The position numbers were made by a program, and so were the translations under genes. The notes beneath the pieces were generated by a model, which was not told the DNA's origin, searched no databases, and saw nothing but the letters and a program-made list of their open reading frames with translations. Shown piece by piece: positions 24,417-25,457 of a DNA stretch of 64,000 bases (position 1 is the stretch's first letter; each line of letters opens with the position of its first letter). This DNA is from an uncultured Solirubrobacterales bacterium (GTDB lineage: Bacteria > Actinomycetota > Thermoleophilia > Solirubrobacterales > JBBDJG01), in contig CAWGVJ010000002.1 of the NCBI GenBank assembly GCA_963826005.1, forward strand, positions 267,385 through 331,384. The letters run 5' to 3'.

Positions 24417-25457
24417 AGGTCGTGGTGCTCGCGGGCGGGCGCTCGAGCGAGCATCCCGTGTCGCTCGACTCCGGCCGCTCGGTGCTGGACGGCCTCGCGC
24501 GCGCGGGCCACGACGCGCGCACGGTGGTGATCGGCCGCGACGGGATATGGCGGGAAACAAATGCCGCCGATCTGCAAGCAGATCGGCGGGTTTCAGGCAG
24601 GACGGTCTCGGTGTCACCCGGCCAGGGGTTGCTCGACGCCGACGTGGTCTTCCCGGTGCTGCACGGGCCGTTCGGCGAGGACGGCACGGTCCAGGGACTG
24701 CTGGACACCGCGGACGTTCCCTACGTGGGCGCGGGCGTGCTCGGCTCCGCGGTGTGCATGCACAAGGTGGTGTTCAAGGACCTGATGGCGCACGCGGGGA
24801 TGCCGCAGGTGCGCTACGAGGCCGTGCGCGAAGCGCGACTGGGAGCAGCCGCCGCGAGGCCGTGCTGGATGCGCTGCGGGGGCTGGGGCTGCCGGTGTTC
24901 GTGAAGCCGGCGCGCCTCGGGTCGAGCGTCGGGATCTCGAAGGTGTCCGAGCCGGCGACGAGCTGGTCGCCGGCGATCGAGGACGCGCTCGCGCACGACC
25001 CCGTCGGCGATCGTCGAGGCCGCCGCGGTCGGCATCGAGGTGGAGTGCTCGGTGATCGGCAACGACGAGCCGGTCGTCTCGGAGCCGGGCCAGGTGATCG
25101 CGCACGGCGAGTGGTACGACTACGAGTCGAAGTACACGGCGGGCGGCATGGAGCTGGTCGTGCCCGCTCCGATCTCGCCGGCGCAGCGCGAACGCGTGCG
25201 CCGCATCGCGCAGGAGGCGTTCCTGCGCTCGTCGTGCGCGGGCCTCGCGCGCGTCGACTTCTTCGTGACCGACGAGGGCCAGGTGCTGCTGAACGAGCTG
25301 AACACGATGCCCGGCTTCACGAACACGAGCGTGTTCGCGCGGCTGTTCGACGCGTCAGGCGTGCCGTACGAGGAGCTGCTGGACCGGTTGCTCGGCTACG
25401 CGATCGAGCGCCAGCGCGAGCGCGCACACTCTGAACATCGGGGCTTCGCCCACCTAA
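24413..25457 (+). pseudogene. ddl: D-alanine--D-alanine ligase (about 4 frameshifts between 24835 and 25010; 3' end uncertain: 25434, 25457 or 25576), with an in-frame hairpin repeat
   Basis: GTG at 24413 overlaps the pknB stop (GTGA). Ddl segments are [69 protein letters not shown] and ELNTMPGFTNTSVFARLF. They lie in three frames. Confidence 0.85.
24563..24610 (+). repeat. Hairpin repeat copy C (inside ddl)
   Basis: CCGCCGATCTG-caag-CAGATCGGCGG followed by GTTTCAGGCAGGACGGTCTCG. It is translated in frame as [17 protein letters not shown]. Confidence 0.75.

Follow-up and report, generated by a model that had tools for sequence, protein, structure and literature searches.

A hairpin repeat read in frame within ddl of a Solirubrobacterales bacterium: probable insertion of a lineage-specific palindrome into a variable protein loop

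The stretch of DNA analysed here (64,000 nucleotides; the window) comes from an uncultured Solirubrobacterales bacterium (NCBI GenBank assembly GCA_963826005.1, contig CAWGVJ010000002.1, positions 267,385 to 331,384, forward strand). It contains four copies of a short hairpin repeat, one of which, the subject of this report, lies inside ddl, a gene for a DdlA-type D-alanine–D-alanine ligase situated directly downstream of a PASTA Ser/Thr kinase gene (Table 1). The genome to which the window belongs (G000) comprises 2.97 Mb in 22 contigs, has a G+C content of 70% and is 67% complete by marker genes. It was compared with the other genomes of the genus (G001–G006), among them that of the sister species (G004), which is 93% complete and better assembled. 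P labels denote Ddl proteins and L labels denote loci or metagenome contigs (e.g., P0011 on L054; P0005/L055).

Positions 24564–24589 form a perfect inverted repeat, CCGCCGATCTGC/GCAGATCGGCGG, with 12-nt arms that are 100% complementary and lie 2 nt apart; in its folded form the segment is an 11-bp stem with a CAAG loop. A search of the window for the 27-mer, allowing up to three mismatches, returned three matches against none expected (100 shuffles). The RNA fold of 24545–24615 has an energy of -28.7 kcal/mol (z = -3.05 relative to dinucleotide shuffles). The open reading frame (ORF) at 24413..24904, with a GTG start at 24413, runs straight through the hairpin on the coding strand, and its translation is exactly that given in the original prediction, which was made from the letters of the window and first drew attention to this copy. 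The frame stays open because the element adds 39 nt, a multiple of three, and because its loop is CAAG and not the commoner TAAG, which in the ddl phase would supply an in-frame TAA. A simple scan for terminators picks out this copy on the minus strand, where the hairpin is followed by a T-run; an Rfam scan of the whole window found no family at the gathering threshold and, near the element, only sub-threshold terminator-hairpin fragments of small RNA models.

The intact orthologue P0001 carries PF01820, PF02222 and PF07478 and matches solved DdlA structures (E = 8e-74), 7u56 and 3i12 being matched at E ~1e-73. As assembled in G000, ddl is broken downstream of the element by 1–2-nt insertions at ~24828, 24849, 24957, 24969 and 25006, and a 4-nt deletion near ~25431 removes the natural stop. 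We read these breaks as assembly errors rather than gene decay, because the same excess of insertions spans the whole 20 kb: in conserved genes there, 116–132 frame-breaking insertions separate G000 from each of three relatives, versus 20–53 among the relatives themselves. For the same reason the possibility that ddl is a pseudogene was rejected as the principal interpretation. The pattern looks like that of an unpolished long-read assembly, and small-insertion errors probably explain the completeness estimate of 67%. The element is corroborated by two independent assemblies: G004 carries the same insertion, in frame, and L054 an analogous one. Across window positions 14600–34590, G000 has some 70–85 more frame-breaking 1–2-nt insertions per 20 kb than any of the three relatives; ddl, the upstream PASTA kinase gene and probably many other genes of the window look frameshifted as assembled.

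The ddl copy is a member of a dispersed family. Family seeds were picked for complementary stems and for one of a few listed loop tetranucleotides, and the genome was scanned for hairpins with the same loop. The members consist of an A-rich leader (approximately AGAAAnAG), an 11-bp stem of the form CCG-N8/N8-CGG, a YAAG loop, and a tail that reads GGGTYTG-N3-5-GCRGGAC. Stems differ between copies yet stay complementary: in the G000 seed set 97% of stem cells pair and compensated changes affect 9 of the 11 pairs; the paired fraction is not independent evidence given that the seeds were chosen for complementarity, just as the loop is partly fixed by the seed search. Neither leader nor tail was used in choosing seeds, and their conservation is independent evidence for a family. 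A covariance model (R1) detects 44 copies in G000 at E < 1e-4, the commonest loop being TAAG (20 of the 44); among the 18 stem mismatches that these copies contain, three are TG versus two CA/AC, with no excess of G-U pairs on either strand. Every one of the 17 other genomes searched from the same taxonomic family harbours the repeat, at 4–83 copies each, and 13 genomes from five sister families of the order yielded one weak match only. The hairpin family is thus lineage-specific and confined to one Solirubrobacterales family. It appears to be undescribed in the literature searched: full-text searches found no relevant work on palindromic repeats in Solirubrobacterales, or on repetitive extragenic palindromic (REP) sequences and REP-associated tyrosine transposases (RAYTs) in Actinobacteria. 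Five copies with a GATC stem, (C/T)GATCTG-YAAG-CAGATC(G/A), lie within 40 kb of contig C2 (at 261384, 282209, 285934, 291949 and 301860), a cluster that suggests local copying or gene conversion among neighbouring copies.

The usual home of the repeat is the first few nucleotides after stop codons, in intercistronic or convergent gaps. Of the 44 copies, approximately 20 have a co-oriented gene upstream whose stop codon stands 3–10 nt before the hairpin, and most of the remainder are intergenic; some eight copies additionally abut the stop codon of a convergent gene. The gaps on both sides of one gene, which by eye reads like nuoF, are filled by copies; a composite transposon, considered for the paired copies C3:9092 and C3:10382, was dropped, the pair being that which flanks the nuoF-like gene. 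In the forward orientation the sense strand carries only the tail GGGUYUG and the canonical T-run is on the opposite strand, and a bias toward the 3' ends of genes is seen. In its stop-proximal position the family most likely serves, or at the least is tolerated, as a REP- or SPRITE-type terminator-like or 3'-end hairpin.

Not all copies are extragenic. In G000 at least 9–11 lie within a coding frame whose third-position G+C is high to either side of the copy; the host genes are ddl, pheA, recO, radA, ligA, smc, thyX, gltB, ftsK and the gene for the acetone carboxylase gamma subunit. In recO, radA, ligA, smc, pheA, thyX and the acetone carboxylase gene the copy is flanked or spanned by Pfam domains, and for the gltB copy and that in the N-terminal tail of ftsK the support is one-sided. 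Within ORFs, forward copies occupy all three phases, each of which yields its own type of peptide: A-x-x-x-Q-A-D-x-x-V (ddl, radA, recO), G-R-x-S-x-S-G-x-A-G (gltB, ftsK, ligA) and P-x-x-G-K-P-x-x-G (thyX, acetone carboxylase gamma subunit). All in-ORF copies in the ddl phase – ddl three times, recO, and radA seven times – have a loop that begins with C, because TAAG in that phase would create CTG-TAA. Survivorship suffices to account for this pattern, which agrees with insertion and subsequent selection for an open frame.

The DdlB-type paralogue of G000 (C2:260424-261500) also reads, as assembled, through a copy of the element (C2:261371-261428), with a tail ...EQAVARAAPRLFEHSSRSVSRSAGLWRDRVSQN... 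that runs to a stop codon; in G001, G004 and G005 the paralogue ends approximately eight residues after QALAR. The tail is either a repeat-encoded C-terminal extension or the product of a 1-nt assembly error hiding a TAG 3 nt before the hairpin.

Where in the protein does the ddl copy fall? As the original prediction had placed it, the insert is in the N-terminal domain, between the beta-strand VVIGRDGIW and the strand DVVFPVLHG. This part of the protein is highly variable. Among the 120 nearest Ddl clusters, 8 to 28 residues separate the W of RDGxW from the PGxG turn; at the insert point, Ddl proteins further removed and solved structures show unrelated sequence whose length varies greatly, and crystallised DdlA sequences align there with a longer excursion of several dozen residues. 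An AlphaFold2 (AF2) model of the N-terminal domain of the window's Ddl, built from an alignment of 80 sequences, has a mean predicted local distance difference test (pLDDT) score of 82.4 and a predicted template modelling (pTM) score of 0.75, with the strands and helices of a Rossmann-like fold and the expected beta–alpha pattern intact. The block of residues 51–60, in which most of the insert lies, has a mean pLDDT of 77 versus 90 and 93 in the neighbouring blocks, and except for a single helical turn the model shows the insert as coil. A full-length AF2 model of the G004 Ddl matches Ddl with a Foldseek probability of 1.0, but its pLDDT is 73.8, and against solved Ddl structures its template modelling score is ~0.5 and its root-mean-square deviation ~14 Å.

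A DNA origin for the inserted residues, as originally proposed, is borne out by the match to the family model (E = 4e-15) and by the existence of an empty allele. At P0005/L055 the DNA is exactly 39 nt shorter at the insert, with the junction ...GATGC/GGTC...; comparison of the filled site with this allele revealed no target-site duplication, only a 1-nt ambiguity. The observation that had been named as contrary, namely the peptide in Ddl proteins that lack the nucleotide repeat, was not made among the 120 nearest clusters: besides the window, the peptide occurs in only two, and both carry the hairpin in their DNA, decayed in G004 and perfect in L054.

The history of the insertion was examined by a synteny search within the genus and by alignment of the four element sites of the window. 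At the ddl site the element is present in G000 and G004 only. A short loop takes its place in G003, G005 and G006, and an unrelated 17-residue loop, of the type DPR..., in G001 and G002. Overall the nearest Ddl, 94% identical once the loop is masked, falls in a group of 328-residue proteins that lack the element; P0005/L055, the closest empty allele compared above, is one of them. The G004 copy has accumulated three palindrome-breaking substitutions, two of them synonymous, and has lost 3 of 12 pairs, within an intact Ddl of 343 residues; the peptide is kept. Because grouping of the G000 and G004 Ddl proteins as one clade is not rejected (approximately unbiased (AU) test, p = 0.48), and because an insertion in recO is likewise common to both genomes, the simplest account of the compared sequences is a single insertion into ddl in the common ancestor of G000 and G004.

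A third case complicates this history. P0011, a metagenome Ddl on contig L054, contains a perfect hairpin, in the same protein loop and of identical orientation and phase, with a different stem (CCGACTTTCTG-CAAG-CAGAAAGTCGG) and a junction 6 nt nearer the Trp codon than in the window's ddl. This protein falls in a different, well-supported clade, and placement of all three element-bearing Ddl proteins in one group is rejected (AU test, p = 1e-5). The rejection implies that the same Ddl loop either acquired the element twice or lost one precisely many times. Further ddl-borne copies were sought by pattern scans: that of 18 genomes of the family recovered only G000 and one chance match, and a single metagenome scan gave 11 matches, none of which is palindromic or in a Ddl-like frame.

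Empty alleles also bear on the extent of the moving unit. Empty ddl alleles already carry GAAGACGATG at the position of the leader, and empty recO alleles are devoid of any leader; the leader may therefore travel with the element. A preference for A-rich target sites may be a common explanation for stop-proximal and in-ORF placement; the empty ddl site is A-rich, but the empty recO site is not.

The copy in pheA provided the second half of the original prediction, according to which the element lies in opposite relative orientation in the two genes and, being palindromic, encodes ADL-x-x-DR in both. The orientation is as described: both copies are on the + strand of the window, with the pheA hairpin (14823–14849; it reads ...HKPADLLTDRPPSF...) inside a minus-strand prephenate dehydratase gene. 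Copy A lies between the prephenate dehydratase (PDT) domain (residues 19–199) and the ACT domain (residues 225–288). The peptides, PADLLTDRP in PheA and AADLQADRR in Ddl, are likewise as reported. Palindromy alone is, however, insufficient to explain them. The triplets GCC-GAT-CTG...GAT-CGG are read from the forward strand of the element in ddl and from the reverse strand in pheA, the palindromic arms being near-identical, and PheA and Ddl share A-D-L-x-x-D-R because this near-identical palindrome is read in the same phase from its 5' end. Read in the strictly complementary frame, the element would give PPICLQIG. In the reverse orientation none of the three phases is closed, and the agreement in phase between ddl and pheA is a coincidence of roughly one in three.

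The further claim, that two essential enzymes carry the same module, stands only insofar as both contain a DNA-derived peptide. "Module" overstates the case: the peptide changes wherever the stem changes, and on that account we see, in the sequences compared, no evidence for a protein-level module, nor does anything point to a conserved protein function of the peptide. The label "essential" has yet to be established for this ddl. All 28 searched genomes that gave two or more matches, G000 among them, show a weaker second Ddl-like match, which in G000 is a DdlB-type paralogue; the DdlA-type ddl of the window may not be individually essential.

Comparison of the remaining sites shows considerable turnover within the genus: copies differ in presence, in orientation (copy B) and in tandem duplication (copy D in G003, recO in G004). 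In the pheA linker (14797–14868) an orthologous element with a compensated stem is found in G005 and a decayed one in G006; the other members of the genus have unrelated sequence of similar length, and repeated turnover of the PDT–ACT linker is suggested. For copy B the orientation is reverse in G000, G003 and G006 and forward in G001, G004 and G005; G002 has no copy, and there a single nucleotide separates the stop codon from the next start. These differences in orientation point to inversion or independent re-insertion at one site. Copy D is missing from its site in G001 and occurs as a tandem duplicate in G003. The gene upstream of copy D ends in DRQ and a stop in filled alleles versus DRGG and a stop in the empty allele, and the A-rich leader of this copy may supply the upstream gene's stop codon.

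Beyond the window, the recO insertion (loci L059–L064) is filled in G000 and G004, with a clean empty site in four other members of the genus; in G004 the recO frame appears to be disrupted by a partial tandem duplication of the element. All seven genomes of the genus have the radA copy (L067–L073, taken by protein synteny and not by structure), which exists as two alternative stem types. In this set 97.4% of stem cells pair, compensated changes are found at 5 of 11 pairs, and the peptide drifts (AVRPQADGR, AVDRQSDRR, AADRQADRR). The radA copy is a coding-region hairpin conserved over species-level divergence.

Table 1. Coordinates of ddl, of the parts of its hairpin repeat and of other copies of the family (window positions unless a genome and contig are given).
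Feature	Position	Strand	Details
ddl, DdlA-type D-alanine–D-alanine ligase gene	24413..25434	+	PF01820, 97.7 bits; split over three frames as assembled
Copy C (in ddl), full match to covariance model R1 (leader, hairpin and tail)	24552..24609	+	G000:C2:291936-291993; 59.1 bits, E=4.3e-15
Copy C, A-rich leader GGGAAACAAATG	24552..24563	+	T-run on minus strand; membership in inserted DNA ambiguous
Copy C, hairpin	24564..24589	+	5' arm 24564-24574 CCGCCGATCTG, loop 24575-24578 CAAG, 3' arm 24579-24589 CAGATCGGCGG; reads (A)ADLQADRR
Copy C, conserved 3' tail GTTTCAGGCAGGAC	24590..24603	+	family consensus GTYTG..GCRGGAC; reads VSGR
Net gain of 39 nt (13 codons) relative to empty P0005/L055 allele	24565..24603	+	boundary ambiguous by 1 nt
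Copy A, in PDT–ACT linker of pheA	14812..14869	+ (gene 14545..15459 on minus strand)	50.7 bits; reads KPADLLTDRPP
Copy B, intergenic gap assigned earlier to fhaB–pstP	18529..18586	-	covariance model match
Copy D, intergenic, directly after TAA stop	34476..34532	+	covariance model match
recO copy, zinc-finger loop	G000:C1:77046-77103		
radA copy, linker between Zn-ribbon and ATPase domain	G000:C5:158825-158883		
ligA copy, linker between helix-hairpin-helix (HhH) and BRCT domains			

Taken together, the ddl copy is a genuine in-frame insertion of the lineage-specific hairpin repeat into a variable loop, and we consider it likely that it persists there as a tolerated passenger. A copy entered the ddl frame, most simply in the common ancestor of G000 and G004, and added 39 nt (13 codons) to the hypervariable loop that follows VVIGRDGIW; on our interpretation the element would be translated as approximately 13 loop residues with no dedicated protein function, and the copy is most likely functionally neutral.

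Several observations sit uneasily with a neutral passenger, or limit what can be said of it. Translation of the insert is predicted from the open frame; ddl in the G000 assembly is frame-broken downstream of the element, and the attribution of the breaks to assembly error is a matter of sequence comparison. The poor domain packing of the full-length model precludes placing the insert relative to the active site or the dimer interface, and the left boundary of the inserted DNA is ambiguous. The spread of the family has neither a transposase nor a target-site duplication to explain it: the Y1/RAYT transposase domain (PF01797) had no match in G000 (67% complete) or in G001, G002, G004, G009 and G011 (86–96% complete), whereas control genomes were matched, and the RAYT-negative relatives include a single-contig genome with 20 copies and a genome with 83. 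Most telling is the state of the stems. A neutral passenger is expected to decay, as in G004, but the ddl hairpin is perfect (12 of 12 pairs) in G000 and also in L054, and the radA copy retains 97% pairing, with five compensated pairs, across seven species. For such in-ORF hairpins two explanations remain: selection for the hairpin as DNA or RNA, or renewal of the stem from intact copies, through gene conversion or re-insertion.

A bolder interpretation, which we regard as rather unlikely, is that the family is more than a passive passenger: it would spread by a RAYT-independent, site-preferring mechanism that hit the Ddl loop twice, and the in-ORF hairpin would be actively kept by selection or gene conversion. 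Were this so, it would amount to a structured DNA or RNA element residing within housekeeping ORFs at domain boundaries, with the protein accommodating whatever the stem encodes.

A specific form of selection, which we judge improbable, is that the ddl hairpin is kept for a nucleic-acid function and the peptide is a by-product. Candidate functions are a translational pause, an mRNA processing or stability signal in the pknB–ddl transcript, an antisense terminator (convergent kinase gene) and a protein- or DNA-structure site. Perfect pairing in G000 agrees with this proposal, as do the independently acquired perfect hairpin with a different stem in the same loop of L054 and the radA set, where the pairing and compensation described above were recovered from seven species by sampling blind to structure; the family is strongly oriented relative to genes, and the minus strand of the ddl copy presents a canonical-looking hairpin followed by a T-run. 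Recent insertion or gene conversion would, however, explain perfect stems equally well. The ddl copy in G004 has lost 3 of its 12 pairs while keeping the peptide, the pheA copy in G006 has decayed, and the ddl of most close relatives is devoid of the element. Selection on an RNA of one particular strand would also be at odds with the mismatches noted above (3 TG versus 2 CA/AC among 18), which show no excess of G-U wobble on the sense strand.

That the ADLxxDR peptide is itself an adaptive module – a regulatory or interaction loop, for example, recruited into Ddl and PheA – strikes us as very improbable. One short motif does occur in two enzymes; in G004 the peptide is conserved despite decay of the palindrome, two of the three changes being synonymous; and the position of ddl directly downstream of a PASTA Ser/Thr kinase gene makes a regulatory loop conceivable. 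The motif in PheA nevertheless follows directly from one palindrome read in the same phase. Elsewhere the peptide differs with the stem (in L054, and in radA as AVRPQADGR and AVDRQSDRR), and copies in the two other phases give the unrelated GRxSxSGxAG and PxxGKPxxG. The insert is, moreover, absent from nearly all close Ddl orthologues and is modelled as a lower-confidence loop. A chance palindrome or assembly artefact is almost certainly not the answer: although the assembly contains many small insertion errors and is only 67% complete by marker genes, the chance expectation is zero, the family model matches at E = 4e-15 with the flanks included, and the same in-frame insertion recurs in the independent and better G004 assembly (93%), with an analogous one in the L054 metagenome contig.

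The tolerated passenger that we favour has a precedent in the Rickettsia palindromic elements (RPEs), which are in-frame, tolerated and translated repeats (PMC10969869, citing Ogata et al. 2000 Science 290:347, 2002 Genome Res 12:808). Both are dispersed hairpin families, a sizeable fraction of whose copies lie in frame in unrelated housekeeping genes at places that the fold tolerates, read-through being predicted in the present case; in both, orthologues differ in the presence of a copy (here filled ddl in G000, G004 and L054 versus empty in P0005, G003, G005 and G006). The differences are also plain, the RPEs being compared by their description. RPEs measure ~100–150 bp and encode a conserved, family-specific peptide, whereas the present element comprises 39–58 nt and its peptide varies with stem and phase; the host of RPEs is an obligate intracellular alphaproteobacterium, in contrast to the free-living soil Solirubrobacterales, with 70% G+C, in which the present family is found; and, unlike RPEs, most of the present copies lie directly after stop codons. 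RPEs are the functionally closest known case, although length and the lack of a conserved peptide place the element outside the strict families RPE-1 to RPE-10, and sequence homology to them is not expected.

By size and placement the element is closer to REPs and to terminator-like repeats such as SPRITE. REP elements, with their RAYT transposases, are known from gammaproteobacteria and others (PMC3184786). Like them, the present repeats are short G+C-rich palindromes with complementary stems, tens to hundreds of copies, a location in 3' untranslated or intercistronic gaps near stop codons and an orientation relative to genes. They differ in that no Y1/RAYT gene was found in G000 and five relatives, an invariant GTAG head is lacking (the leader, though rich in A, varies, and GTAG occurs in only a few copies), and the G000 copies are singletons and not the pairs known as bacterial interspersed mosaic elements (BIMEs) or REPINs. 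REPs are furthermore extragenic by definition, whereas about a quarter of the present copies are in predicted translated frames. SPRITE, of ~105 nt, is a repeat of a low-G+C Firmicute (PMC3049150; PMC3184786); it too is interspersed, has a structure like that of an intrinsic terminator, is biased to the 3' ends of genes, convergent pairs included, and occurs occasionally inside coding regions. In the present family, by contrast, copies in the commoner gene-following orientation have the T-run on their opposite strand, and the tail on the sense strand is no more than GGGUYUG.

Among actinobacterial repeats, mycobacterial interspersed repetitive units (MIRUs; Supply et al. 1997, one site of which lies next to a Ser/Thr phosphatase gene, as described in PMC3184786) share a size of 40–100 bp, a location in the intercistronic gaps of operons and ends that abut stop and start codons, and the phosphatase-adjacent site resembles copy B. 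By their description, however, MIRUs are tandem arrays with short direct repeats rather than single perfect hairpins, and in-frame copies in housekeeping genes are not among their hallmarks. Nor does the element qualify as a MITE (miniature inverted-repeat transposable element): its sole inverted repeat is the hairpin, and the ddl junction has no target-site duplication.

The significance of these findings is that behaviour like that of RPEs is now indicated in free-living, high-G+C soil actinobacteria, and with a much smaller, REP-like element. Ddl, PheA, RecO, RadA, LigA, SMC and other proteins of this lineage would carry loops that stem from repeat DNA and not from protein evolution, which would explain odd insertions in protein alignments and structure models of Solirubrobacterales. 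The filled and empty ddl alleles, differing by a clean 39 nt, make a pair in which movement without a recognisable transposase may be studied. Two points stand out, namely that the Ddl loop appears to have been hit in two lineages and that some in-ORF copies are kept as hairpins; the family may serve as a natural test of the load of nucleic-acid structure that an ORF can carry.

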